64,000 bases of DNA from a virus. The stretch covers positions 32,001 through 96,000 of the IMG/VR virus record IMGVR_UViG_3300042542_005394; one strand, given 5' to 3'. The notes beneath the pieces are model-generated. The model was not told the origin of the DNA. It saw only the letters and a program-made list of their open reading frames with translations, and did not search any database. The position numbers and the translations under genes were made by a program. How positions within the stretch are numbered: the stretch's first letter is position 1; each line of letters opens with the position of its first letter. Below, piece by piece: positions 26,649-39,599 of the stretch.

Positions 26649-27224
26649 TTATATATAGGAATCAGGCAAATAAATTTTCCATTCGTTCGGTATGTCTGAT
26701 CTTATTCTAAGAAGAAAGTGAGATATAGGCAAGTACTTGGGGCTTTTATTTGGTATCATCGGAAGATTTCTAATAGGCATATTAGCCTGTTTAGGTGTTC
26801 TATTTCCTTTTTTACGATTACATTCTACGCAAGCTGTTACTATATTTGTCCAATTCGTTGGTGATCCATTCTTATTTTTCCATAATGATTTTGGAATAAC
26901 ATGATCATAGGTTAATTTAGCTATTTCTTTAGTTTCTCCACAATACTGACAGCTATAATTATCTCTTATAAAAATATTTTTTCTAGAGAAATTAACTTTA
27001 GCATTATTCACTCTAAAATATTTAGATGTTCTTATCACTGCTGGTATTGGAAATTTTTTGTTATTAGTACCATTAATATAATCATTTTTGTAGAAGTCTA
27101 TAACTTCTATATGAGAATGATTGCTATCTATTAATGACCATGTTATAGCTCTTTTCCAATCAACAATAGCTAATGGCGTAAAATCAGCATTTAACACCAA
27201 GCATTTACTGTGTCTTATTTTCAT
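26649..27224 (-). CDS. HNH endonuclease (McrA-like)
   Basis: LVLNA, RD.Y.CQYCG, T.DHVIP, W.N.VTAC..CN..KG. Confidence 0.9.
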   Translation of the reverse strand: MKIRHSKCLVLNADFTPLAIVDWKRAITWSLIDSNHSHIEVIDFYKNDYINGTNNKKFPIPAVIRTSKYFRVNNAKVNFSRKNIFIRDNYSCQYCGETKEIAKLTYDHVIPKSLWKNKNGSPTNWTNIVTACVECNRKKGNRTPKQANMPIRNLPMIPNKSPKYLPISHFLLRIRSDIPNEWKIYLPDSYI

Positions 27225-27930
27225 TTTCGAAAGAATCTAAACGATGAATAATTTTGCCGATAATTGGATTTCTAACAATATCAGATGATGTTAATTTTGC
27301 AATACCTATACCTTCAACACCTTCAAGAACGCTCATCATATTATAAAAGCCGCCCTGCATGTGTCTATGTAAATCTGATTGGCTGGTATCTCCTGTTACA
27401 ACCATCTTGCTATTCATGCCAATTCGAGTCAATAACATTTTAAGTTGATCATAGGAAGCATTTTGACATTCGTCAGCAACAATAAAGCAATTATGAAAGT
27501 TTCGCCCTCTCATTAAGCCCAATGGTACAATCTCTATTTTGTTATTGATTTTCAGATTAGCATATTGTGCTGCTGGAATAAAATAATTTATTTCATCTAG
27601 TAAGGGCAGTAGATATGGATGAAGTTTTTCTTCAGCACTTCCGGGTAAGTATCCTAATTTTTCTCCAGATTCTACTACTGGCCTTGTAATAATAATCTTT
27701 TTAACTTTTTCATCTAATAAATACTCTAGAGCTAAACCTACGGCTATATGACTTTTGCCGCTACCAGCTACTCCTTGACAGAAAGTTATAACGTTTTCTG
27801 CTACGGTTCTGATGTATTCCTTTTGATTATCTGTTCTTGGTTTTAGTCTGTTTCTATAAGCATCTGGCATCCTGATTTCGTTTGTTGCGTCTATAACTTT
27901 ACTTTTCTTCTTATTGGGTTTTTTTCTCAA
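27205..27930 (-). CDS. phoH: PhoH-like ATPase
   Basis: GVAGSGKS, RPVVE.GE.LGYLPG, MRGR, DECQN, GD..Q.D. Confidence 0.93.
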   Translation of the reverse strand: MRKKPNKKKSKVIDATNEIRMPDAYRNRLKPRTDNQKEYIRTVAENVITFCQGVAGSGKSHIAVGLALEYLLDEKVKKIIITRPVVESGEKLGYLPGSAEEKLHPYLLPLLDEINYFIPAAQYANLKINNKIEIVPLGLMRGRNFHNCFIVADECQNASYDQLKMLLTRIGMNSKMVVTGDTSQSDLHRHMQGGFYNMMSVLEGVEGIGIAKLTSSDIVRNPIIGKIIHRLDSFENENKTQ

Positions 27931-27975
27931 GTTAGGCCCTTTATTAATAGAATTAGTAAAACCAATGCATATTAA

Positions 27976-27984
27976 AATACACCG
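27976..27984 (-). promoter_or_regulatory. YGGTGTAT motif upstream of phoH
   Basis: cGGTGTATtt, 47 nt upstream of the start. Confidence 0.55.
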
Positions 27985-28003
27985 TTAATAAAGGCTATTT
28001 ATA

Positions 28004-28372
28004 TTATTTTAACACAAAATTCTCTAGATTTGGAGCTTTCCATCCCTCTGGTTTTAGCACCTTGCCGTCCTCTCTTTTCTTTACTTTTCCTGTTACAGAA
28101 TCAATCTTGTCAAAATTGGTACGCATTACCTCATCCCAACCAGCTTCTCCATTTGCTCCCATACTATTGATAGCTCCCACAGTAACTACTATTATATCTA
28201 TTAGAGCATCTAGAATTTCAACTCTGTCATTAGCGTCTATAGCCTCTTGTAATTCTTGAGTTTCTTCCTTGATCAAAGTATGATACATATTTAACTGCTT
28301 TTCATTAAACTCACATACTGTCTGATCACAAGCCACCATAAACTTAGTCTGGTCCTGAAATACGTTTCCCAT
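28004..28372 (-). CDS. MazG/HisE-like all-alpha NTP pyrophosphohydrolase
   Basis: LIKEETQEL..., EILDALIDII.V, EV..TN..K, KVLKP. Confidence 0.85.
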   Translation of the reverse strand: MGNVFQDQTKFMVACDQTVCEFNEKQLNMYHTLIKEETQELQEAIDANDRVEILDALIDIIVVTVGAINSMGANGEAGWDEVMRTNFDKIDSVTGKVKKREDGKVLKPEGWKAPNLENFVLK

Positions 28373-28399
28373 AATTTACTTTTGTCCTTTCATGATTGA

Positions 28400-30049
28400 T
28401 TATGATTCACAACTACTACACGTTAAAATACTTCTAGCTAATTCCTGAGCAGGATTGCTCGATCTCTGATAATAAAATGTCTTAATTCCATTTTCCCATC
28501 CAAAAATCAATAACTCGCTCACTTCTTTAGCCGGACAGTTTGGAGGTATCATTAAGTTAAGAGATACTGCCTGATCTATATATTTCTGACGTTGTATATT
28601 TTGAATAACAATTTCTTTCTGACTTATTTCGCCAAAAGTCTTAAAGATATTTTTTTCTTCTTGTGTGAGAAAATCTAAATGCTGAACACTACCACCCCTA
28701 ACAAGAATATCTTTCCATACTTCTTCTGTGTCTTGATTTTTGTCCTTTAGGAGTTTTTTAAGGTATGGATTTTTGTATGTGAAACTACCTTTAGCCAGTT
28801 TCTTCACAAAGTAGTTACTATTTAAAGGTTCGATGGATGGACTCACTTGCCCTAAAATAAAACTACTGCTCGTAGTGGGCGCCACAGCGACTGTGGTGAC
28901 GTTTCTACGTCCATAGCCCTTGAGCAATTCTGGCTCTCCATACCTATGAGCTAATTCTACAGAAGCCTTGTCTGCCTTAGATTTTATTGTTTTCCATACG
29001 TCTACATTTAAAGCTTTTGCTCCCATAGACTCAAAAGGAACCATCTTAGACTGTAATAATGAATGCCAGCCAAGAACCCCCATACCTAATGCTCTTTGGT
29101 TTTTAGCAAAATTATGAGAAGACTCCATAAATTGACTATTAGCAGTTTTTCTAATGAACTCCTCATTGACTGCATCAAGAAAATATACTAAAGTTTCTAT
29201 TGCGTCTGTTTCCTTGATCTCGTCCCAATGCAATAAATTAAGACTAGACAATACACAAACAAAACTATTATCCTCATCAGAAAATAGTGTAATTTCTGAG
29301 CATAGATTTGATGACTTAATTTTTAGTCTTTTGTCTTTATATGGCTGAGGAGCAACATTGTTAACATTATCGCTAAACATAATATATGGATAGCCTGTCT
29401 GAAATCTCTTTTGAATTATTTTTGCCCAAATTTTTCTTTTTTCTTTGTCTCCATTAACCATATCTTTCATCCACTCATCACCTATGGTAACACCAATACT
29501 CATATTTTGAATGGGATGACCCTCACTGCGTATTTGTAGAAACTCTTCTATATCAGGATGTTCTACAGGAAGATATGCAGCAAACGAACCTCTACGAGCA
29601 GAGCCTTGGGACACAACCTCAGCAACCTTGTCAAATAACTCCATAAAATGCACAGGACCACTACTTTCTCCACCAACACTTATCTTAGCTCCTCTAGCTC
29701 TAAGATCTCCAAAATAACCACTGGTGCCTCCACCTAATTTGCTCATCATACCAACTTCTGCTACTTTATTCAATATGCCATCCATAGTATCTGGAATATA
29801 AGAATTAAAGCAGGAAACTGGAAGCCCTCTATCGTTGCCAAAATTAGTCCACACTGGGGTTGCTAGACTATAGAAACCTCTACTCATATAGTCTTCGAAT
29901 TTGTCAGCAAATCCTTCTGTGTTTAGGATAGCTTGAGCCGTTTCGGCAATTTGTCTAACTCTAGTTTCCGGAGTTATTCCTTCTTTAAGATATCCTCTTT
30001 CCAAGAAAATGCGACTATGAGAGTTAAGCCAGTAATATTTTTTATTCAT
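28400..30049 (-). CDS. nrdA: Class I ribonucleotide reductase alpha subunit (short, no ATP cone)
   Basis: PVSCF, SNLCSEI, FVCVLSS, APT, YY.RS, C-terminal CSSCES. Confidence 0.93.
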   Translation of the reverse strand: MNKKYYWLNSHSRIFLERGYLKEGITPETRVRQIAETAQAILNTEGFADKFEDYMSRGFYSLATPVWTNFGNDRGLPVSCFNSYIPDTMDGILNKVAEVGMMSKLGGGTSGYFGDLRARGAKISVGGESSGPVHFMELFDKVAEVVSQGSARRGSFAAYLPVEHPDIEEFLQIRSEGHPIQNMSIGVTIGDEWMKDMVNGDKEKRKIWAKIIQKRFQTGYPYIMFSDNVNNVAPQPYKDKRLKIKSSNLCSEITLFSDEDNSFVCVLSSLNLLHWDEIKETDAIETLVYFLDAVNEEFIRKTANSQFMESSHNFAKNQRALGMGVLGWHSLLQSKMVPFESMGAKALNVDVWKTIKSKADKASVELAHRYGEPELLKGYGRRNVTTVAVAPTTSSSFILGQVSPSIEPLNSNYFVKKLAKGSFTYKNPYLKKLLKDKNQDTEEVWKDILVRGGSVQHLDFLTQEEKNIFKTFGEISQKEIVIQNIQRQKYIDQAVSLNLMIPPNCPAKEVSELLIFGWENGIKTFYYQRSSNPAQELARSILTCSSCES

Positions 30050-30074
30050 TGTTATTTCTATTATAATCCTTCAA

Positions 30075-31046
30075 CTAAAATAAATCATTAGCATCGAAAC
30101 TTTGAGAATGTTTAGCATACTCCACAGGACGACTATGGAAAAAATCTGTCATGTTATTACCTAATATTTGTTCATCAAACCAAGATGTTTTTGAGATTAT
30201 TTCCTTGTCAGCTTCAAAAATAGCATCGTACCCTATTTGTTTTAAAGACTCATTCATCCTATTCTTTATGAATTCTTTGAGGAGATCAGAGCTAAGTTTC
30301 TCATGGTCGTATCCATTTACTATCCACTCTATAATTTGACACTCATACTTGATGGCATCTTTGGCTTCGTGTTCTATTTTAGCTTTCAGTTCCTCATCAA
30401 ACAGCTCAGGATGTTCGCTTTTGATCGTGTTTATAATTTTAATACCAATCATAGCATGAAGGTTTTCTTCTCTGCTGGTATATTCTACTTGTTTGTTAGT
30501 ATCTTTCAACAAGTTTTTATATCTGCCAAAAAAGCTAATAGTATAAAACTGAGAGAACAAAGCAATGTTTTCTACAAACAAAGTAAAAAGAATTAGTGAG
30601 TAAATAAATTGTTTTTTGTTGTTATCATGAAATTTATGTAGATGTTTGCGTAGATAATTTACTCTGCCCTTAATGATATCTAATTTGAGAATATCATCGA
30701 AAGCATCATCTATGCCTAAGACTTCTAGCAGTCTCTCATAGGCATCTCCATGAATGACTTCCACATTAGCCATTACATAACCCATATCATTAATACTTGG
30801 GTGAGGCAGATTATCTCCCAATTTGGCCCAAAACTTTTTGACACTAATTTCTAGTTGGCCTATTGTTGATAATGCTCTTATAACTATCTCTCGTTCTTGA
30901 TCGGTCAAATTAACTTTAAAATCTTGAGTATCGCTACTAAAATTAAACTCTTTATCTGTCCAGAACCCGTTGTGCATGGCCGTTATGAATTCTTGTGTCC
31001 AAGGATAATTGTCTGGTTTGCGAGATATTTGTTCTTCAAAAATCAT
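30075..31046 (-). CDS. nrdB: Class I ribonucleotide reductase beta subunit (class Id-like)
   Basis: QLEISVKKFW, EVIHGDAY, FVENIALF, EE.LH, DFF..RP..Y. Confidence 0.92.
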   Translation of the reverse strand: MIFEEQISRKPDNYPWTQEFITAMHNGFWTDKEFNFSSDTQDFKVNLTDQEREIVIRALSTIGQLEISVKKFWAKLGDNLPHPSINDMGYVMANVEVIHGDAYERLLEVLGIDDAFDDILKLDIIKGRVNYLRKHLHKFHDNNKKQFIYSLILFTLFVENIALFSQFYTISFFGRYKNLLKDTNKQVEYTSREENLHAMIGIKIINTIKSEHPELFDEELKAKIEHEAKDAIKYECQIIEWIVNGYDHEKLSSDLLKEFIKNRMNESLKQIGYDAIFEADKEIISKTSWFDEQILGNNMTDFFHSRPVEYAKHSQSFDANDLF

Positions 31047-31149: not shown

Positions 31150-31962
31150 TTATTTGATTGTGTGTGGAGTTGGAACTCTTTTATCAAAGACCTGATTGTA
31201 CCAAAAATGGTATTGATATTTATTACCGTCTCCAACATCAAATAAACATACCGATTGATCAATGCTAGAAACTAATCCTGGCCACATTTCTAAACTCAGT
31301 AGGTGATTGTGCGGCTTATACCAATCATCTTGGAATAGTATATCTGCATCGAACCAAAAAAAGGTACCAGAATAGTGAAAACAACTATTGAAATAGCAGT
31401 CTTTGTCTGTTCTTAAACAACCAATAAAATTATATAATTTAGATTCTATTTTGGGTTTGACAAGATCAAAAAATAAATCAATATTATATTTCCATAATGT
31501 ATTTACCCAACAAGTTACGGCATAATCTTTTTCTGGATGAGAACATCCTTTCCCATGACCAAAAAATACAAAATTCTGTTCTTCATCATTTTTTAATAGG
31601 CTTCGTAATAGCGGAGCAGATTTATCAAAAAAGTGTGACGATTCTTTGGTGGTTGATGAGTTAATACATGGTATGATTATGGTTCTCGGATCATATAATT
31701 CATCTACAATCTTCTGAAACATAATATTATTATGGAACTCATTATTTGGGCTAGATACTGTTATTATTTTATAACCATTGAAAATATATAAATTTTGTTT
31801 TAATTTGGCTATGGCATAATGTATTTTTTCATGATTCACACAATGAAGATGAAATATAAAATGATAATTTATATTATTTTGACTATTATCTAACGTTGCA
31901 AAACTAGTATTTTCTTTTGTATTTTTGCATAAAAATTTAAACAACATGACTTCTACACTCAA
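31150..31962 (-). CDS. Hypothetical glycan-island protein (possible divergent GT-A)
   Basis: FFGHGKG and HYSGTFFWF motifs; neighbours are glycosyltransferases. Confidence 0.5.
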   Translation of the reverse strand: MSVEVMLFKFLCKNTKENTSFATLDNSQNNINYHFIFHLHCVNHEKIHYAIAKLKQNLYIFNGYKIITVSSPNNEFHNNIMFQKIVDELYDPRTIIIPCINSSTTKESSHFFDKSAPLLRSLLKNDEEQNFVFFGHGKGCSHPEKDYAVTCWVNTLWKYNIDLFFDLVKPKIESKLYNFIGCLRTDKDCYFNSCFHYSGTFFWFDADILFQDDWYKPHNHLLSLEMWPGLVSSIDQSVCLFDVGDGNKYQYHFWYNQVFDKRVPTPHTIK

Positions 31963-33070
31963 TTAAATTTTTAACCATAATTGTGTAGATATCTAACTTA
32001 AAAGTTCCTGTTTGATTGTTATTTTTTATCATGGTTGGTAACCTAGCTAATAACCCAAAATTATTTTCATTAATTTTATTAGCGTCACATAGTATAAGCA
32101 CGCTATCATTTGTTAAAATATTATCTATATTTTCAAAAAAATGTATTTTATTCCGTAAGTTAATTTTTGTATTTTTTTGTTCTTCTTTTAAGTAGTCAAC
32201 ATATAAATTAGACAAATTTTTATGTATATAAATATTATTACACCATGGTTCTATTAGCTCTAATATCTGATCATTACAATTATTTATTGCTATTGATGTC
32301 GAGTATTTAGGTCCTTTGAGTGTTGATCCCCATTTTCTAATAAAATTTCTATTTGACCGATATTCTATTTCTGAAGAAGTATTCATAAATTCATCAGAAA
32401 ATCTTGATGTTTTACTAACAAAATGGTAAGACAAAGCGTCTTTTGATGTAATAAGTTTTAAATTATTTGCTTCTAATCTCCATATTAAGTCAATATCTTC
32501 AGCAAACATTGGGTAAAAAAGAGTATCAAATCCTCCCACTTTTTCAAATGTCTCTTTACTTAAGGCCATAAAAAATGAACACCCTGCTTCTACTTGATCG
32601 AGATATTCATGTTGATAACTTTCACAAAACTCATAGAACTTATTTGTGTCGATATTACCAACATTGTCACCGAAATTATTTAATACCTTACCAACTGAGG
32701 TATTATTAAAAATTGGTGGCTCAACAACAGTATAAGAAACGACAGAATTATCATTAAGATGCTTATGTATATTTTCTAGAAATTTTGGACCTACAATCAT
32801 ATCATTGTGTAAAAAAACAACGTACTTATTAGTAGATAATGATACTGCTTTATTATATGTTGTTGCTAAGCTGGCGTTTTCATGACTATAGTAAATTTTA
32901 ACATTACTATCTTTGGTAGCTATTTGTTTTAACCATTTATGTGTATAGTCAGTACTACCATATGATACTAAACATATTTCTGTATCTGGATACAGCTTTC
33001 TGAAAGTTTGGTAAAAATATTTAGTATATTCTAGATTATTTTTAAGACCGACTATTGTTGAAATATTCAT
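31937..33070 (-). CDS. GT2-family glycosyltransferase
   Basis: GSTD.T, FLHND, GGFD..F...AEDIDL..R. Confidence 0.85.
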   Translation of the reverse strand: MNISTIVGLKNNLEYTKYFYQTFRKLYPDTEICLVSYGSTDYTHKWLKQIATKDSNVKIYYSHENASLATTYNKAVSLSTNKYVVFLHNDMIVGPKFLENIHKHLNDNSVVSYTVVEPPIFNNTSVGKVLNNFGDNVGNIDTNKFYEFCESYQHEYLDQVEAGCSFFMALSKETFEKVGGFDTLFYPMFAEDIDLIWRLEANNLKLITSKDALSYHFVSKTSRFSDEFMNTSSEIEYRSNRNFIRKWGSTLKGPKYSTSIAINNCNDQILELIEPWCNNIYIHKNLSNLYVDYLKEEQKNTKINLRNKIHFFENIDNILTNDSVLILCDANKINENNFGLLARLPTMIKNNNQTGTFKLDIYTIMVKNLIECRSHVV

Positions 33071-33155
33071 TTTATTATTAGGTTTTTAACTAGATAGTTC
33101 ATTGACTTTTTTTATTATAGAGAAGCATCCAAGTAAAACAAGAATAGGAATATTT

Positions 33156-33530
33156 ATGGATTTTATACAAAAAAAATGGGGATATGAAATTTGGATAGAG
33201 AATAATAGCTTGTATTGCGGCAAGCATTTACATGTGGTTCCAAATCGCTGGTGTTCAGTACATTATCATAAGAATAAAAAAGAAACTTTTTATGTTATTA
33301 GTGGCACATTAAAGCTACAATACTCTACTTCACTAGATAAAGAAGAATGGAAAACAAATCCCGAAGAACACTTAGTAAAAAGCATCATTTTAGAAAAGGG
33401 TCAATCCTTTACTATTAATCCCATGACAGCGCACAGATTTACTGCTCAATCACATTATCCTTGTGATTTTATAGAGATATCAACATTTCATGAGGATTCT
33501 GATTCTTATAGAATAATAGAAGCTATATGA
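33156..33530 (+). CDS. Cupin-fold sugar isomerase/epimerase-like protein
   Basis: KKWGYE.W, CS.HYH..K.ETFYV..G, HRF, IEIST.H...DSYR; start placed at MDFIQ. Confidence 0.8.
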   Translation: MDFIQKKWGYEIWIENNSLYCGKHLHVVPNRWCSVHYHKNKKETFYVISGTLKLQYSTSLDKEEWKTNPEEHLVKSIILEKGQSFTINPMTAHRFTAQSHYPCDFIEISTFHEDSDSYRIIEAI

Positions 33531-33823
33531 TATACTATGTAGATATTGATAATACAATCTGTTTGACAGAAAATAGTGACTATGACAACAGTAGTCCATT
33601 ATATGATAGAATCAGAGCAATAAACAACCTATATGACCAAGGACATACAATAGTTTATTGGACAGCGAGAGGGTCTAAAAGTAATAGAGATTGGTCTGAA
33701 TTAACTAAAAATCAGTTGGACTTTTGGGGATGCAGAAGACATAATATATTATTTAATAAACCTCATTATGATCTGTATATAGATGATAAATCAATAAATT
33801 CAGAAAGTTTTTTCAATGAATAA
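33527..33823 (+). CDS. Minimal (capless) HAD phosphatase
   Basis: VDIDNTI, WTARG, KP.YD.YIDDK. Confidence 0.85.
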   Translation: MIYYVDIDNTICLTENSDYDNSSPLYDRIRAINNLYDQGHTIVYWTARGSKSNRDWSELTKNQLDFWGCRRHNILFNKPHYDLYIDDKSINSESFFNE

Positions 33824-34574
33824 AATTGCTGTGATAGGAGAATCTTGTATAGATGAATATGTTTATGGGATATGCGATAGGGTTTGCCCGGAAGCTGCCG
33901 CTCTGTGTTTCAAAACCAGTGAGGAAAAAAGATCTAATATGGGCATGGCACATAATGTATATAACAATATATTAGCAATGAATACGGATTTGGATGTTAC
34001 TCTAATAACAAATAATACTACTATCATTAAAAGAAGATTTATAGACTATAGATATAATACTATAGTATTTAGAGAAGATATCAATGATTCATGTGAGCCT
34101 ATCGATATTAAACAATATGATTTTGACTCATATGATGTTATAGTATTCTCTGACTATTGTAAAGGATTTTTATCTGAAACAAGTATTATTGACATATGTA
34201 AAAAAATTAAAAAATCCTGCTATGTGTTTATAGATACAAAAAAAAAGATTAAAGATTTTATTAGATATGTAAGTTTTTTGAAGATTAATAGCACAGAATT
34301 AAAGCAGAATATTGTTGACATCGAAGATATTAGTAAATATTGTCGGGTAATTGTAACCAAAGGAGAGAATGGAGCTACTCTTTATGAGGGTAGTGTCGTT
34401 AAAAACTATCCAACAAAAAAAATAGAAGTAAGAGATGTTTGTGGAGCAGGGGATACTTTTATGGCTGGTCTGGTGGTTAAGTTCTTGGAAAACAAAGATA
34501 TTGATGAAAGTATCAATTATGCTAATTTGTGTTCTTCCGTAGTGGTAGAAAAATTTGGGGTAACCACACCATGA
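33816..34574 (+). CDS. hldA: HldA/RfaE-I-like heptose-7-phosphate kinase (PfkB family)
   Basis: VIGE.CID.YVYG...R.CPEA, SDY.KG, DVCGAGDTF. Confidence 0.8.
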   Translation: MNKIAVIGESCIDEYVYGICDRVCPEAAALCFKTSEEKRSNMGMAHNVYNNILAMNTDLDVTLITNNTTIIKRRFIDYRYNTIVFREDINDSCEPIDIKQYDFDSYDVIVFSDYCKGFLSETSIIDICKKIKKSCYVFIDTKKKIKDFIRYVSFLKINSTELKQNIVDIEDISKYCRVIVTKGENGATLYEGSVVKNYPTKKIEVRDVCGAGDTFMAGLVVKFLENKDIDESINYANLCSSVVVEKFGVTTP

Positions 34575-34972
34575 AAAATATATGGGTCAATGGATGTTTT
34601 GATATTTTACATGTAGGGCATATTAGACTTTTAAAATATGCTAAGTCTTTAGGAGATAGATTGATAGTTGGTATCGACAGCGATGCTAGAGTCAGTGAGA
34701 TGAAGGGTCTAAATAGACCCATTAATTCTCATATATATAGAAAAGAAATGCTTTTGAGTATTAAGTGGGTAGATAATGTTGTGGTTTTTGATTCTGAAAT
34801 ATCTCTGATAAAAGCTATTAAAAATCATAGTATATCAGTTATGGTAGTTGGAGATGACTATGTAAATAAAAAAGTAATAGGGTCAGAATATGTAGAATCA
34901 TTAATTTATTTTTCAAGGATACCTAATATTTCTACAACAATATTATTAAACAATAATATTACTTCTGATTGA
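34571..34972 (+). CDS. hldC: HldC/RfaE-II-like heptose-1-phosphate nucleotidyltransferase
   Basis: NGCFDILHVGH, GIDSD..V...KG..RPIN, C-terminal STT; ATGA overlap with the kinase gene. Confidence 0.82.
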   Translation: MKNIWVNGCFDILHVGHIRLLKYAKSLGDRLIVGIDSDARVSEMKGLNRPINSHIYRKEMLLSIKWVDNVVVFDSEISLIKAIKNHSISVMVVGDDYVNKKVIGSEYVESLIYFSRIPNISTTILLNNNITSD

Positions 34973-35806
34973 TGTTTTATTGACATATTCTAGAATATTA
35001 TATAAATCTGATAAATCTATGTCGTTTATAGTGTATGATTCTATAGATATCTGATTATGATTTTTAGGTTGCCAATTAATAGCAGTTGTAGCACCTGAAT
35101 AGAAGGAATAACCATAAAACCCAATAACTGGATGGTTATATGCTGACGCAGCCCATATCATTCCAGTATCAGCCGATATTAAAAATCTACTAGATAACAT
35201 TACTTTAACTGATTCAAAATATGTACCATTAAATTTTGTAGCTCCTTCTATTGTAGAATCATTTGGTCCACCAAGCTGGACAATAGGAAGATTGAATTGC
35301 AAAGCAAATTTTTGAACTTTCTCTAGTATTTTATGCGTTAAATTTTTTGGACTTCCAAAACTAGTAAAAGGAGCTATTGTTATATAATCTTGTCTACATA
35401 TTTGTCCAGGAATATTTAATGAGAAGTCCATTTGTTCTTCCGATGGTTCTGGAAGATTGTGCATTAAACAGTTTTCTGTTGTCTGGTGCCTATGTAAATA
35501 CCAGTTTATTTCTTTGTGTTTAGCATTTGGATCGAATACATGCAAATTTTTCCCATAGATATCTATGAGATTTTGTATCATGAATACATCTTGCTCTCCT
35601 GGCCAATCATCATATTTATCCCATACGATTATATCGTCTATGTGATCACTATGTAAAAATATTTCTTTACAGTCTGAAAACTTTTTATTAATAGAGTATA
35701 TGAGTCTAGACTCTGGATATTTTTGTTTTAAGACTGAGGCCGCTGTTAAACCTATGAACAAATCCCCGTACTGTCCATGATTAAATCCTATAAAAGTTTT
35801 TTTCAT
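34946..35806 (-). CDS. GT9-family (heptosyltransferase-like) glycosyltransferase
   Basis: GQYGDL......LKQKYP...LIY and ISADTGM..AASAY..PVIGFYG. Confidence 0.75.
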   Translation of the reverse strand: MKKTFIGFNHGQYGDLFIGLTAASVLKQKYPESRLIYSINKKFSDCKEIFLHSDHIDDIIVWDKYDDWPGEQDVFMIQNLIDIYGKNLHVFDPNAKHKEINWYLHRHQTTENCLMHNLPEPSEEQMDFSLNIPGQICRQDYITIAPFTSFGSPKNLTHKILEKVQKFALQFNLPIVQLGGPNDSTIEGATKFNGTYFESVKVMLSSRFLISADTGMIWAASAYNHPVIGFYGYSFYSGATTAINWQPKNHNQISIESYTINDIDLSDLYNILEYVNKTSIRSNIIV

Positions 35807-35815
35807 AAAAACTCT

Positions 35816-36352
35816 TCAACTTGATACTTTATTGTATACTGCCATCTCAAATCTGCTTCCAGTAAGATAAAATAAATCAAAAATAGGATATTCTAATCTT
35901 AATGCTGAACCCTTACTATTAAAATCATCACATAAAATCACTGCTTGTGTTCTATCTATTTTATTAAACTGCCTAAGCATCTCTTGTGGATCATCTGATC
36001 CATCTAAATATATCAAATCATATGTACTATCAGAGATATGATTATATGCGTCATCATTTAAAAAATTTATTTTCGCATTAATTCCATAAACTAATTTTTT
36101 GCAATTTTCGAGCGCTTGATTATCTATATCTATTATATCTAGTCTACCGCCATATTGTTCTATATATCTAGCCCAAAAAATACTACTCCATCCGTCCCCA
36201 AATCTGGCTTGATCAGATAAATCTCTAGCTGCTCCTATCTCTAATATATTGACTGGATTATGATTAAACATGTCTAAACAATGTTTAAATATATGATCTC
36301 TCCCAGCTTCTGTTTTTATTAGATGGTCTATGTATTTATTTGCAGTTGTCAT
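35816..36352 (-). CDS. Class I SAM methyltransferase-like protein
   Basis: ILEIG, IIDID, DLIYLDG, ILCDD. Confidence 0.75.
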   Translation of the reverse strand: MTTANKYIDHLIKTEAGRDHIFKHCLDMFNHNPVNILEIGAARDLSDQARFGDGWSSIFWARYIEQYGGRLDIIDIDNQALENCKKLVYGINAKINFLNDDAYNHISDSTYDLIYLDGSDDPQEMLRQFNKIDRTQAVILCDDFNSKGSALRLEYPIFDLFYLTGSRFEMAVYNKVSS

Positions 36353-36367
36353 AAGATAGAATAACTT

Positions 36368-36958
36368 TTATTTTGGTGTGTAGACCCCATATATTTCATC
36401 ATCATAGAATATTTGTAAATTATGAGTATCAGATAGAATATCTTGTATAAAATTAGAATTATCAAATTCTTTATTTGGTTTTAGATCTGTTCTTTTATTT
36501 TTTGAACACCATTCGCCATTATTGAGATAGACTCTTAAATCATCAACGAGTATAACGTCTTGGTGATTTTTTCTAAGTTTTTGTATCATTAATAGTTCTT
36601 CTTCTAATGGTAATCTTATTCTGTTAGGTTCATCACTACTATAAGAAGATAAGCCAGCATCAGCACCAGGATAATGAGCATCTAACCAAAAAATAATATT
36701 TTCTTCAATTGTTGGTAATATATCTGACATCGCAGATAGGCTATTATCTAGTTTAATTATTATGTTATTGATATTGTTGAACTTTTTGCTAACATTAGTA
36801 TATAGTTCTTGATTAATTTCTACAGATATTAATTTTTTAAATCCATATCTTTGTGCTGATACTAAACCGTCTCCTTTGTACGTACCTGTTTCAAAAAAGA
36901 TAGTCGTATTATATTGTTTGATATATTGTTGTAAATTAAAATAATTAAGAGTACCCAT
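36368..36958 (-). CDS. Class I SAM methyltransferase-like protein
   Basis: FFETGTYKGDG, SVEI, FWLDAH, ILVDD.R. Confidence 0.75.
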   Translation of the reverse strand: MGTLNYFNLQQYIKQYNTTIFFETGTYKGDGLVSAQRYGFKKLISVEINQELYTNVSKKFNNINNIIIKLDNSLSAMSDILPTIEENIIFWLDAHYPGADAGLSSYSSDEPNRIRLPLEEELLMIQKLRKNHQDVILVDDLRVYLNNGEWCSKNKRTDLKPNKEFDNSNFIQDILSDTHNLQIFYDDEIYGVYTPK

Positions 36959-36973
36959 TTGACTATCCTTTAT

Positions 36974-37624
36974 CTAAATATTAACGAATATATGAGGAGG
37001 AATATTTTTAAATTTTTCTTCTGATTTTGGCCAGAGCATTTTTGAACTATCCCATCCTAAATTACGCAGTGTGTATACTACTTGCACAAAAGCCGCTTGG
37101 TGTATTCTTCTGTCCATAATTTCAAAAGCCATTTGTCGTAGAAAGGTATCAAAATTTTCTGGTGGATAAATTAATCCTGGATAAATAGTATTATGAGTAA
37201 TACTACTATGTGGTATAGTAATATATAAAATTCTTCCAGGCTTTAGGATTTGTTTGATCTCAAACAATAAATTGTATGGGTTGGTTACATGCTCTATGGT
37301 TTCTAAACAAAAGGCAATATCAATTGGTGCATTTTTTTCTAGAAATATTTCTGCAAATTTTGAATCAAGATTGGTAACAAAATATTCGCAAACTTCTGAT
37401 GCTGCTTTGTTGTCGTATCCGTCCCATCCATAGAAGGTATTATTTTGATTTTTGGGTAGTCTATTAAATAGCATTCCATACCCGCATCCAAAATCACCAA
37501 TTCTTAGATTGTTAAGTTCTTTTAACTTAAAATCTTTAACAAAATAGTCAAGCCTAAGTTGATGACTATTTTCATATACTTCTATAGGCTGTCTATCAAA
37601 AAAATTATAGTAGTTATTATTCAT
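36974..37624 (-). CDS. Class I SAM methyltransferase
   Basis: DFGCGYG, ETIEHV.NP, ILKPG...I..P. Confidence 0.85.
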   Translation of the reverse strand: MNNNYYNFFDRQPIEVYENSHQLRLDYFVKDFKLKELNNLRIGDFGCGYGMLFNRLPKNQNNTFYGWDGYDNKAASEVCEYFVTNLDSKFAEIFLEKNAPIDIAFCLETIEHVTNPYNLLFEIKQILKPGRILYITIPHSSITHNTIYPGLIYPPENFDTFLRQMAFEIMDRRIHQAAFVQVVYTLRNLGWDSSKMLWPKSEEKFKNIPPHIFVNI

Positions 37625-38477
37625 GAGTGTAAAATTTATATAAGTTTAGAATATTTTTAGCAATTTGAAACTTAGAAAACCTGTGCTGGATTTGATTACT
37701 GCAATAGAGCATTATATGCTTGTTATATTCTTCAAAATTATTCAATATTTCTTGGTATTTATTTGATATTGATTCTTTGGTAGGATCACAAATGCAAAAC
37801 TCTGGACATAATTCGGAATTGGGATTGTCTGAACAAACAATAGGCACCGCTCCGCAAACCATTGCTTCTAAAGCTGTTAATCCTAATCCTTCAAAACTAG
37901 AAGGTAATGGTACAATTTTGGCTCTATTATAGAGTTGATTTAAATTAATATCATTTACCATTCCAAGATTATGGCCAATGCCACCAAATGGGCCGACAGA
38001 AATAATTTCTTCGAATAATGGCTCAAGCAAGTGTGTTCTTTTAACTGGGTCTGTGGCTCTTCCAACATACAAACAATTTATATCTTTGGTTATAGAAGAG
38101 TCATAAAAAATATCTTTAATTGGATTATCAATAACATAAGCATCAATACCTATAATTTCATGTAGTTGTTTTTTGACTGGCTCACTAATGCAGGTGACTA
38201 CCGACGCATGGGATAATTCATCCTTGAGCTGATCTATTGGGAAACTACTAATGTGCGTAGGAATATCTAACACATTAAATATTTTGAATACGTCATTATC
38301 TAATGCGCAGTCTTGATAGTCTGGATCTCTCGATGAATAAGGAAAGTTATTGGCATATACAAAATCATACTTATCGGAGGGGCCGACATTGTGACCTAAG
38401 CCAGCAAACCCCTGCATTATACGAGGGACTTGACACCAATATTGTTTAGCTCCGTAAACCTTAATATTCATGAACAT
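37617..38477 (-). CDS. GT4-family glycosyltransferase
   Basis: YVGR, PSSFEGLGLTALEAMVCG. Confidence 0.85.
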   Translation of the reverse strand: MFMNIKVYGAKQYWCQVPRIMQGFAGLGHNVGPSDKYDFVYANNFPYSSRDPDYQDCALDNDVFKIFNVLDIPTHISSFPIDQLKDELSHASVVTCISEPVKKQLHEIIGIDAYVIDNPIKDIFYDSSITKDINCLYVGRATDPVKRTHLLEPLFEEIISVGPFGGIGHNLGMVNDINLNQLYNRAKIVPLPSSFEGLGLTALEAMVCGAVPIVCSDNPNSELCPEFCICDPTKESISNKYQEILNNFEEYNKHIMLYCSNQIQHRFSKFQIAKNILNLYKFYTHE

Positions 38478-39111
38478 TATTTTTTGCCATATTTTTATAG
38501 AATGAATTTTGACTTCTTTGTTTATTTATGTGTTTTCTATGCAAAATAGCTACTCTACCATCGTCTGAAATAGCGGCACTAGATTTAAATCCTTCTAGGT
38601 GCTCATGTACAAATCCACTCCAGTGTATTAAGTTATTATTTTTGTAAATCCTTGGCTGGTAGTCTGGCCAATTTATCCATCCTTTTTCATTTATTTTCCA
38701 TGACCATTTTTTAATATCCTCTTCAGTTAATCCATCAACAATATTAATACGTGGAAGATAATATAAATCTATATCATTGGAAGCTATCTCTTTTCTTAAT
38801 GCTTGAATAGCATCAAAACGCATTTCCTCATCAGCATCAAAATTAAAAATATATGGCTGAGATGCTTGGCTAGTCATATAGTTTTTAAGTTCAGCAAAAT
38901 TATTTTTAAAATGGAAAGTGCTATATTTATTAGAGTATCTCTGGCAAATTTCTTCTATAAGCTTATAATTGTCTGTTTCTTTTTCGGATTCGTCTCTGTA
39001 TGTTTGAATAATGACTAGTTCATCATTATCTTTTTTAGCACCATTAAGTAGCGTTATTAGCTTGATAATCTCTTTGGTTTCATTATATACTGTAACACAA
39101 TATGAGATCAT
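38461..39111 (-). CDS. GT2-family glycosyltransferase (WaaE/KdtX-like)
   Basis: YNE, FAELKN, FDADE, WPDYQPR, VHE. Confidence 0.85.
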   Translation of the reverse strand: MISYCVTVYNETKEIIKLITLLNGAKKDNDELVIIQTYRDESEKETDNYKLIEEICQRYSNKYSTFHFKNNFAELKNYMTSQASQPYIFNFDADEEMRFDAIQALRKEIASNDIDLYYLPRINIVDGLTEEDIKKWSWKINEKGWINWPDYQPRIYKNNNLIHWSGFVHEHLEGFKSSAAISDDGRVAILHRKHINKQRSQNSFYKNMAKNNVHEY

Positions 39112-39599
39112 ATTTTAATATTCCTAATCCAGGATAGGTCGGGATCGATATACTCTATATTAATACCGCTCATTTGTATAAACAAGTTGAATCTTTTTTG
39201 GTGTTCATCATCAAACAGATGAGTTCCGTGGTTTTTCCTCATAAATACTTTGGTAATACCTTCTTGCCATAGGGCCATGATACAATCATTGCAGCATTGA
39301 CCAGTAACATATGCTATTCCATTTTCTGGTCTTATGGTGCAGTTTGAGAGGGCGTTCCTTTCCGCATGAATCATCCAAGGATATTTATCTGGCCTAGTAT
39401 TAGGCAGTTTGCTATCGTCTAATCCTTTTGGAAATCCATTATATCCAACTCCCAAAATTCTATTGTCCTTATCTGTGATGACACAACCGTGTTTGGTTTG
39501 AATGTCATGACTGCGCATTGCTACTGCGTGAGCTAGTCCTATAAAATATTCGTTCCACGATGGGCGATTAGTGGCTTTTGATTGATCTGTCATGATCAA
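39108..39599 (-). CDS. dCMP deaminase (ComEB-like)
   Basis: W.EYF, GYNG, HAE.NA, CCNDC. Confidence 0.9.
   Translation of the reverse strand: MIMTDQSKATNRPSWNEYFIGLAHAVAMRSHDIQTKHGCVITDKDNRILGVGYNGFPKGLDDSKLPNTRPDKYPWMIHAERNALSNCTIRPENGIAYVTGQCCNDCIMALWQEGITKVFMRKNHGTHLFDDEHQKRFNLFIQMSGINIEYIDPDLSWIRNIKI

Follow-up and report, generated by a model that had tools for sequence, protein, structure and literature searches.

Genes of the heptose activation pathway, which is canonically carried out by GmhA, HldA, GmhB and HldC, are not new in phages. Cassette genes of cyanophages have been treated as heptose-related lipopolysaccharide (LPS) genes (PMC7378029), and the survey of Tang et al. (Science 2024), as set out in two commentaries on it, reported functional viral kinases and nucleotidyltransferases together with tridomain isomerase/kinase/nucleotidyltransferase proteins, while the phosphatase was absent from the viruses surveyed (PMC11461863, PMC11573728). 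Another phage route, described in PMC13326640 (citing He et al. 2026), runs through an isomerase, a kinase, a phosphatase and a nucleotidyltransferase to UDP-arabinofuranose for DNA modification; its phosphatase AfhF is Mg-dependent and removes the 5-phosphate of arabinofuranose-1,5-bisphosphate. Here we describe a cassette of four genes, encoding a cupin, a small HAD phosphatase, a PfkB kinase and a nucleotidyltransferase, in a stretch of marine phage DNA of 64,000 nucleotides (the window) that corresponds to bases 32001-96000 of the 113-kb IMG/VR record IMGVR_UViG_3300042542_005394, a record estimated to be ~82% complete. With moderate confidence, we propose that the cassette specifies a self-contained route to nucleoside diphosphate (NDP)-D-glycero-D-manno-heptose in which the cupin stands in for GmhA and the mini-HAD for GmhB, and which feeds the neighbouring transferases. 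It is this double swap that is undescribed in the literature found.

Organisation of the cassette and proposed route

Gene content, folds, motifs, synteny, fusions and co-occurrence statistics were determined directly. Analysis of the open reading frames (ORFs) indicated that the four genes lie head to tail on the plus strand with overlaps of 4-8 bp, and that they meet a convergent gene on the minus strand:

33156-33530, plus strand: cupin, 124 aa, proposed sedoheptulose-7-phosphate ketol-isomerase (GmhA analogue), predicted
33527-33823, plus strand: capless HAD phosphatase, 98 aa, proposed heptose-1,7-bisphosphate 7-phosphatase (GmhB analogue), predicted
33816-34574, plus strand: short PfkB kinase, 252 aa, of the HldA (heptose-7-phosphate 1-kinase) type
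34571-34972, plus strand: nucleotidyltransferase of the cytidylyltransferase fold, 133 aa, of the HldC type
34946-35806, minus strand: GT9-like glycosyltransferase, 286 aa, candidate heptosyltransferase, convergent with the cassette

The ATG start of the cupin at 33156 agrees with a database protein of 124 aa (100% identity), the start of the nucleotidyltransferase overlaps the kinase stop as ATGA, and the minus-strand gene overlaps the 3' end of the nucleotidyltransferase by 27 bp. The ORFs and the Pfam/NCBIfam assignments (Cupin_2/Lyx_isomer/PMI-C, small HAD, rfaE domain I-like, rfaE domain II-like) agree with the four-gene plus-strand operon inside a minus-strand island that the initial annotation had described from the sequence.

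The proposed route would lead from sedoheptulose-7-phosphate to NDP-D-glycero-D-manno-heptose. The cupin, as an enzyme of the phosphomannose isomerase (PMI)/D-lyxose isomerase type, would take over from the SIS-fold GmhA the conversion of sedoheptulose-7-phosphate to heptose-7-phosphate; phosphorylation at O1 would fall to the short HldA-like PfkB kinase, the 98-aa capless HAD would remove the 7-phosphate in place of GmhB, and the HldC-like transferase would form the NDP-heptose. Glycosyltransferases of the island (one of them weakly GT9-like) and its methyltransferases may then build a glycan on the host envelope or on the virion. All four catalytic activities, the sugar, the nucleotide used and the acceptor are predicted from sequence.

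The initial annotation held that gmhA or gmhB elsewhere in this genome would speak against the replacement; no SIS, SIS_2 (GmhA) or GmhB-type HAD gene and no TIGR01656 match was found across the 113-kb record at its ~82% completeness. An SDR (short-chain dehydrogenase/reductase) epimerase, HldD-type included, was also absent from the record, and no 6-epimerisation is therefore implied.

The cupin

The 124-aa protein matched Cupin_2 (PF07883) with 38.5 bits against a cut-off of 27.2 (E 9.5e-10), and it also exceeded the gathering cut-offs of Lyx_isomer (PF07385, 29.4 bits against 20.8) and of the PMI C-terminal domain (PF01050, 27.3 against 23.6). No SIS model of Pfam or NCBIfam matched it, and it is not a member of the GmhA family (TIGR00441/PF13580). 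The protein is a barrel with a His-His-Glu-His metal site and a Lys/Glu motif; the AlphaFold2 model has a pLDDT of 94, and its best Foldseek neighbours are D-lyxose/D-mannose isomerases, small Thermococcus PMIs and a cupin phosphoglucose isomerase (PGI). Alignment of 30 phage, bacterial and archaeal homologues revealed that H36, H38, K41, E43, H93 and E107 are invariant, and an alignment that included YdaE showed the cupin to share the HxHxxKxE motif and a distal His with L-ribose isomerase and the D-lyxose isomerases. Judged by its modelled fold and its motifs, the cupin is of the metal-dependent ketol-isomerase type.

The PMI reaction has its C7 counterpart in the isomerisation of sedoheptulose-7-phosphate to manno-heptose, and by analogy we infer that such PMI-like chemistry on a C7 substrate may apply to the cupin. 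The family comprises 3,420 cluster representatives at E <= 1e-10, and no paper on a cupin-type sedoheptulose-7-phosphate (heptose) isomerase was found in the literature.

The small HAD protein

Motifs I-IV of the HAD protein (DxD, T, K, DD) are intact, with D6, D8, T10, T46, K78 and D87 invariant and D86 nearly so in 12 sequences. The protein matched TIGR01689 at E 2e-8, with 34 bits against a cut-off of 162. Its sequence and fold place it near the small capless HAD sugar-bisphosphate phosphatases of the AfhF/TIGR01689 type (PDB 9iqw, 1xpj). It failed membership of the GmhB families (TIGR00213 and TIGR01656 HAD-IIIA), HAD-SF-IIIA alone matching at E 0.0026, and the GmhB structures matched its model weakly (Foldseek E ~2e-3). 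The best relative in the PDB, by phmmer (E 1.7e-13) and by Foldseek (rank 1, 39% identity), is 9iqw, titled as the D-arabinose-1,5-diphosphate phosphatase AfhF of phage HY126; by analogy, the AfhF reaction is chemically parallel to that of GmhB.

Among the best 120 longer proteins that contain this HAD, 52 are fusions to the cupin, 31 to a GmhA-type SIS domain (TIGR00441, 134-159 bits) and 4 to the transferase, and none combines cupin and SIS. These alternate fusions indicate that the HAD works with a true GmhA in some lineages and that the cupin fills the same fusion slot in others. No viral locus with a HAD-GmhA fusion was found by single-protein search, and an alignment-based search gave stand-alone HAD loci only. 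The small HAD and GmhB were never seen together in any of the cassettes examined.

The same small HAD is also fused to PF02348 cytidylyltransferases of the CMP-Kdo/CMP-nonulosonate synthetase type (P0361, P0371, P0412, P0416, P0428), so the HAD family is not restricted to heptose; this implies that the members so fused would act on acidic C8/C9 sugars as well, taking off their terminal phosphate. One cluster of HAD-cupin fusions in the ESM Atlas (222 aa, 104 members) is listed mostly as Nucleocytoviricota, and the cupin/HAD swap may extend to giant viruses of eukaryotes.

Kinase, nucleotidyltransferase and convergent glycosyltransferase

HldA is the best PfkB family of the kinase by 22 orders of magnitude (rfaE_dom_I 1.7e-37 against ribokinase 2.6e-15), and HldA 4e84 is its best PDB match. 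The kinase aligns over its full length with cellular HldA proteins that pass the family cut-off and keeps the motifs GDxxxDxYxxGxxxRxxPEA, SDYxKG and GAGDT; alignment with cellular HldA also revealed a deletion of ~26 residues after the first of the HldA motifs. The nucleotidyltransferase matched rfaE_dom_II at 6.9e-31 and TagD at 1.2e-20, its PDB matches are cytidylyltransferases, and its HxGH and xSTT motifs read HVGH and PNISTT. Ile, not Arg, stands before STT, the Arg of the STTR5 motif given in PMC11461863 being absent.

The 286-aa gene matched the GT9 family PF01075 at E 2.8e-4 (20.7 bits against a cut-off of 22) and Heptosyltransferase II at E 4.5e-4, with a weak PDB match to 3tov (E 0.071). 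When it was compared with cellular GT9 by hhalign, 96 C-terminal columns that include the region of the DTG motif were aligned (70.7% probability, E 3.8e-5). Its convergent position is as first reported, while the GT9 label attached to it at that time is weak.

The cassette in viruses

The cupin retrieved 19 viral contigs, in most of which the cupin is succeeded by HAD, kinase and transferase as in the window, and all four genes were present in 51 of the 80 viral loci found through the HAD alone; given this recurrence, the four-gene order is not due to chance. Identity across the many viral contigs that keep the set is 55-98%. Short kinases of this kind were found in at least 577 viral stretches, and among the short-kinase loci with full flanks (n=76) the kinase was accompanied by transferase, cupin and HAD in 39 and by transferase and cupin in 7, and stood alone in 18.

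A cupin with 37-44% identity is present in 35 GenBank phage records, nearly all of them Synechococcus or Prochlorococcus myoviruses. The cassette is thus present in cultured phages; in P-SSM2 and S-CAM1 the order is nucleotidyltransferase, kinase, "phosphoheptose isomerase", cupin, and genes for an SDR epimerase and a carbamoyltransferase lie close by. The cyanophage "phosphoheptose isomerase" (107-114 aa) was considered as a true GmhA beside the cupin, which would have spoken against the replacement, and rejected: it is the small HAD, with 45% identity to that of the window (E 5e-32) and no SIS match. The gene is labelled 'phosphoheptose isomerase' in GenBank/RefSeq at L020:6661-7005 (P-SSM2 PSSM2_311) and L021:6682-7005 (S-CAM1), and the accompanying cupins (L020:6986-7342, L021:6989-7342) are labelled 'putative nucleotidyltransferase' or 'cysteine dioxygenase', neither of which the sequence supports. 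The HAD mislabel probably stems from the HAD-GmhA fusion proteins, and it has been propagated into an automatic cluster name of the ESM Atlas.

The cupin in cellular genomes

Cellular homologues of the cupin occur in candidate phyla radiation (CPR) bacteria, DPANN and other archaea, Bdellovibrionota, Planctomycetota and other groups. An HldA-type kinase is adjacent to the cupin in 42 of 80 cellular loci. In loci annotated in detail, the cupin adjoins HldA, GmhB and HldC that pass the NCBIfam cut-offs, and GT9 too. Locus L023 carries an O-antigen ligase, an HldA-cupin fusion, an HldC-GmhB fusion, GT9 and a methyltransferase; L024 carries GT2, the same two kinds of fusion, an SDR protein and GT9. 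In L028 a GT9 gene is followed further along by the cupin, a GSU2086-family protein, HldA, GmhB and HldC, the last three passing the NCBIfam cut-offs. Fusions of the cupin include HldA-cupin, cupin-HldA, nucleotidyltransferase-cupin, HldE-cupin (P0208) and a cupin-HldE of 608 aa (L206), as well as fusions to SDR epimerases and to methyltransferases.

The GSU2086-family protein (~300 aa; NF052581, 421 bits; weak deoxyhypusine-synthase-like Pfam match) lies between cupin and HldA in Methanosarcinales/Woesearchaeota (L028:8335-9231, L026:8339-9250). The 608-aa protein of L206:6611-8437 is a tridomain cupin-HldA-HldC of Bdellovibrionota genome G067, similar proteins being encoded by G068-G070, all in genomes without gmhA, and its gene adjoins GDP-mannose genes (a ManC-like gene without PMI domain, Gmd and RmlD).

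Occurrence of GmhA beside the cupin

We sampled 190 viral loci through the cupin, the transferase, the kinase or the HAD, with some overlap between the samples, and GmhA was found in none of them (0/190). Among 124 genomes of Bdellovibrionota, gmhA was absent in 8 of the 10 with strong cupin fusions and in 7 of the 114 others (odds ratio 61, Fisher p = 2.4e-7), a p-value that overstates independence since the ten fusion genomes represent about two architectures or lineages.

The surrounding island

The cassette is embedded in a minus-strand island containing two GT2 and one GT4 glycosyltransferases, two clear methyltransferases and one weaker, and two unknowns. The island's neighbours are PhoH/MazG/NrdA/NrdB at one end and, at the opposite end, dCMP deaminase and a 1284-aa protein. 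Its parts outside the cassette are:

31150-33070, minus strand: left arm, a 270-aa protein without family match and a 377-aa GT2 glycosyltransferase
33071-33155, separating the GT2 gene (minus strand) from the cupin (plus strand): divergent intergenic region of 85 bp, presumed promoter region of the cassette
35816-39111, minus strand: right arm, methyltransferase of 178 aa, unknown of 196 aa, methyltransferase of 216 aa, GT4 of 286 aa, GT2 of 216 aa

The 270-aa protein and the 377-aa GT2 also adjoin the cassette in viral contigs L001 and L002. The promoter is presumed to lie at 33071-33155 from position alone, and a scan for sigma-70-type promoters revealed no enrichment over shuffles. Genes of nucleotide metabolism flank the island at window positions 27205-31046 (PhoH, MazG-like pyrophosphohydrolase, NrdA, NrdB) and 39108-39599 (dCMP deaminase). 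The DnaE fragment of the record is 33-35% identical to diverse phages.

Alternative explanations

Several observations weigh against the proposed route, and they concern in the first place the identity of the sugar. The kinase scores 129.2 bits, below the HldA equivalog cut-off of 345 (TIGR02198), and the nucleotidyltransferase 107 bits, below the HldC cut-off of 181.5 (TIGR02199); with both so far under the family cut-offs, the identity of the sugar is one that we infer. AfhF, the nearest characterised relative of the HAD, has an arabinose and not a heptose substrate, cassettes L003, L004 and L010 have no HAD, and the GT9 assignment of the 286-aa gene is weak. In addition, in ~18 viral loci with other sugar contexts a short HldA-like kinase occurs unaccompanied by cupin, HAD or transferase. 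Such kinase-alone contexts suggest a different substrate there and, together with the low family scores, they make the substrate specificity of the phage branch not secure. At L052:2566-8480 the short kinase stands beside a DegT aminotransferase, an RmlC-like epimerase, an FkbM methyltransferase, a PNP_UDP_1-like protein and a UDP-glucose dehydrogenase.

These points would agree with the same four-step logic applied to another sugar, either an NDP-pentose (D-arabinose from ribulose-5-phosphate), an NDP-hexose (mannose from fructose-6-phosphate via mannose-1,6-bisphosphate) or a heptose that differs in C2 configuration, and so would the structural neighbours of the cupin, which act on pentoses, hexoses and hexose phosphates, the deletion in the kinase and the HAD fusions to CMP-nonulosonate/Kdo-type synthetases. 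On the other hand, the Afh enzymes (a SIS isomerase and a fusion of an APH-like kinase with an NTP_transferase-fold enzyme) are unrelated to the kinase and transferase of the window, whose best matches by far are HldA and HldC (10-22 orders of magnitude). Furthermore, the cellular cupins sit with HldA, GmhB and HldC that pass their cut-offs and with GT9, the small HAD is fused to true GmhA in other proteins, and by their established stereochemistry the lyxose/mannose-type cupin isomerases would yield the manno configuration expected of heptose. We regard another sugar as unlikely and retain the heptose route with the cupin in place of GmhA.

The remaining points against that route concern GmhA itself. 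GmhA lies within 7 kb of the cupin in 3 of the 42 cellular cupin+HldA loci, a GmhA-sized SIS_2 protein is encoded by 19 of the 35 cellular genomes with cupin and HldA, and the Bdellovibrionota signal derives from about two lineages of metagenome-assembled genomes (MAGs), which may be incomplete. In L159 the sole GmhB lies in the GmhA module, which means some sharing; this arrangement and the three loci with GmhA within 7 kb make sharing of the GmhA product possible. Mutual exclusivity of cupin and GmhA as a general genome-wide rule was rejected, since both occur in 19 of the 35 genomes. The exclusivity in cassettes that the initial annotation had put forward as a check holds at the cassette level, where GmhA was found in none of the viral and three of the cellular loci, and within Bdellovibrionota.

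Since these genomes hold GmhA, which in L136, L151 and L159 belongs to the wider locus of the cupin, it could be argued that the cupin has an accessory or tailoring function in the beta (HldA) branch, such as epimerisation of heptose phosphate or NDP-heptose, and that heptose-7-phosphate comes from the host or from an unlinked GmhA. Fusions of the cupin to SDR epimerases and methyltransferases point the same way, as do the cupin-fold C3/C5 epimerases known from Campylobacter heptose modification according to PMC7949155. The RmlC-type epimerases, however, contain no metal and fall into a different Pfam family, whereas the window cupin keeps the metal site and Lys/Glu motif of the ketol isomerases. 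Eight of the ten Bdellovibrionota genomes with cupin-HldA/HldE fusions are without any gmhA, and fusions of the HAD to cupin or to GmhA are alternative and never combined. Moreover, in the four cases of co-occurrence examined, GmhA was found with the GHMP kinase HddA in L034 (HddA, GmhA, GmhB and transaldolase), L151 (HddA, GmhA, a HAD-nucleotidyltransferase fusion and SDR) and L159 (HddA, GmhA and GmhB), and next to a transaldolase in L136, in each case in a separate alpha-type module, and the PfkB kinase remains beside the cupin. Such an arrangement fits a pair of parallel modules, one with GmhA and one with the cupin as its own isomerase. An accessory role is, in our judgement, quite improbable.

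Two sugar-activation modules lie side by side at L151:4568-10426, on a 13.4-kb contig of a marine 'Acidimicrobiaceae' MAG that is possibly viral. The first comprises an SDR protein, a short PfkB kinase, a 98-aa unknown, a nucleotidyltransferase and the cupin, and the second an HddA-like GHMP kinase, a GmhA-like SIS protein, a small-HAD-nucleotidyltransferase fusion and an SDR protein. The 98-aa ORF (L151:6293-6589) was considered as a second small HAD and rejected, as it has no similarity to it.

Glycosylation of the phage's own DNA by the NDP-sugar, as a heptose-type base hypermodification, is very unlikely. The position of the island between ribonucleotide reductase/MazG and dCMP deaminase, the AfhF relationship and a transferase that matches GT4 families of conflict systems are pointers to it, and it is weakened by the lack of a ThyA-like hydroxylase/hydroxymethylase gene in the 113-kb record. 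A remnant cassette, in decay or without function, or a coincidental gene order is scarcely credible, for nothing specific favours it beyond short and divergent proteins, while the catalytic motifs are all intact, the genes are translationally coupled and the set is conserved in many viral contigs.

The one-to-one mapping of the four genes onto the four steps, with cupin for GmhA and HAD for GmhB, is strongly favoured by context, namely the cellular HldA/HldC/GmhB/GT9 neighbours, the fusions, the Bdellovibrionota genomes and the AfhF homology. It is qualified by the GmhA-like genes in cupin genomes, the kinase and transferase scores, the weak GT9 and the predicted nature of the activities.

Significance and comparison with known systems

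If the cupin isomerises sedoheptulose-7-phosphate, it would be a second, unrelated enzyme for the first committed step of heptose activation, and a widespread one, whose 3,420 representatives come from ocean phages, predatory bacteria, CPR bacteria, and DPANN and other archaea. Heptose capacity would then be under-counted in surveys that rely on GmhA and GmhB as its markers, including those on ADP-heptose as an innate-immune agonist. Long-propagated cyanophage annotations (the HAD as "phosphoheptose isomerase", the cupin as "cysteine dioxygenase" or "nucleotidyltransferase") would be corrected, and a compact set of four enzymes for NDP-heptose production would become available.

The canonical GmhA/HldA/GmhB/HldC pathway has the same four chemical steps; the kinase and transferase of the window are homologous to HldA and HldC, and a GT9-like gene is adjacent. 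It differs in the first step, where the SIS-fold GmhA corresponds to the cupin, and in the third, where a GmhB of ~180 aa corresponds to the 98-aa capless HAD. The window kinase is also ~60 residues shorter than HldA, and no HldD-type epimerase is present in the record. The 'heptose LPS genes' of cyanomyoviruses (P-SSM2 PSSM2_309-312, S-CAM1, S-T4, S-SM2, SynMITS9220M01) belong to the same four families with 37-48% identity, but they are ordered differently and come with an SDR epimerase and a carbamoyltransferase.

The phage Afh pathway (HY126 AfhE/AfhF, RB69 gp51-55, DLP3 gp81-83), as presented in PMC13326640, is likewise phage-encoded and is built along the same lines, with isomerase, anomeric kinase, terminal-phosphate HAD and nucleotidyltransferase. 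Its product is UDP-D-arabinofuranose for the arabinosylation of 5-hydroxycytosine (PMC13326640, citing He et al. Nat Chem Biol 2026), and it employs a SIS arabinose-5-phosphate isomerase, the APH-like kinase fused to the NTP_transferase-fold enzyme and a ThyA-like 5-hydroxy-dCMP synthase, none of which occurs in this record. The two commentaries on Tang et al. (PMC11461863, PMC11573728) mention no cupin-type isomerase, while the relatives of the window genes include cupin-HldE tridomain proteins; the mini-HAD is a candidate for the viral phosphatase gap that these commentaries ascribe to the survey.

The cupin itself shares fold, metal-ligand motif and HxHxxKxE with the cupin ketol isomerases, that is, the type II PMI domain of GMP-PMI (ManC/AlgA), the Thermococcus PMIs (7zvm, 7zvy), the D-lyxose/D-mannose isomerases (7nzo, 2y0o, 3kmh) and cupin PGI. 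Identity to them is only 15-26%, and the cupin belongs to a distinct, tightly conserved family with the signature WGYExWIENN...YCGK...HYHKxKxETF. Its proposed substrate is a C7 ketose phosphate, and no paper was found that documents such a substrate for any cupin. A precedent for the cupin fusions is given by GMP-PMI, in which the PMI is fused to the nucleotidyltransferase of its own pathway.

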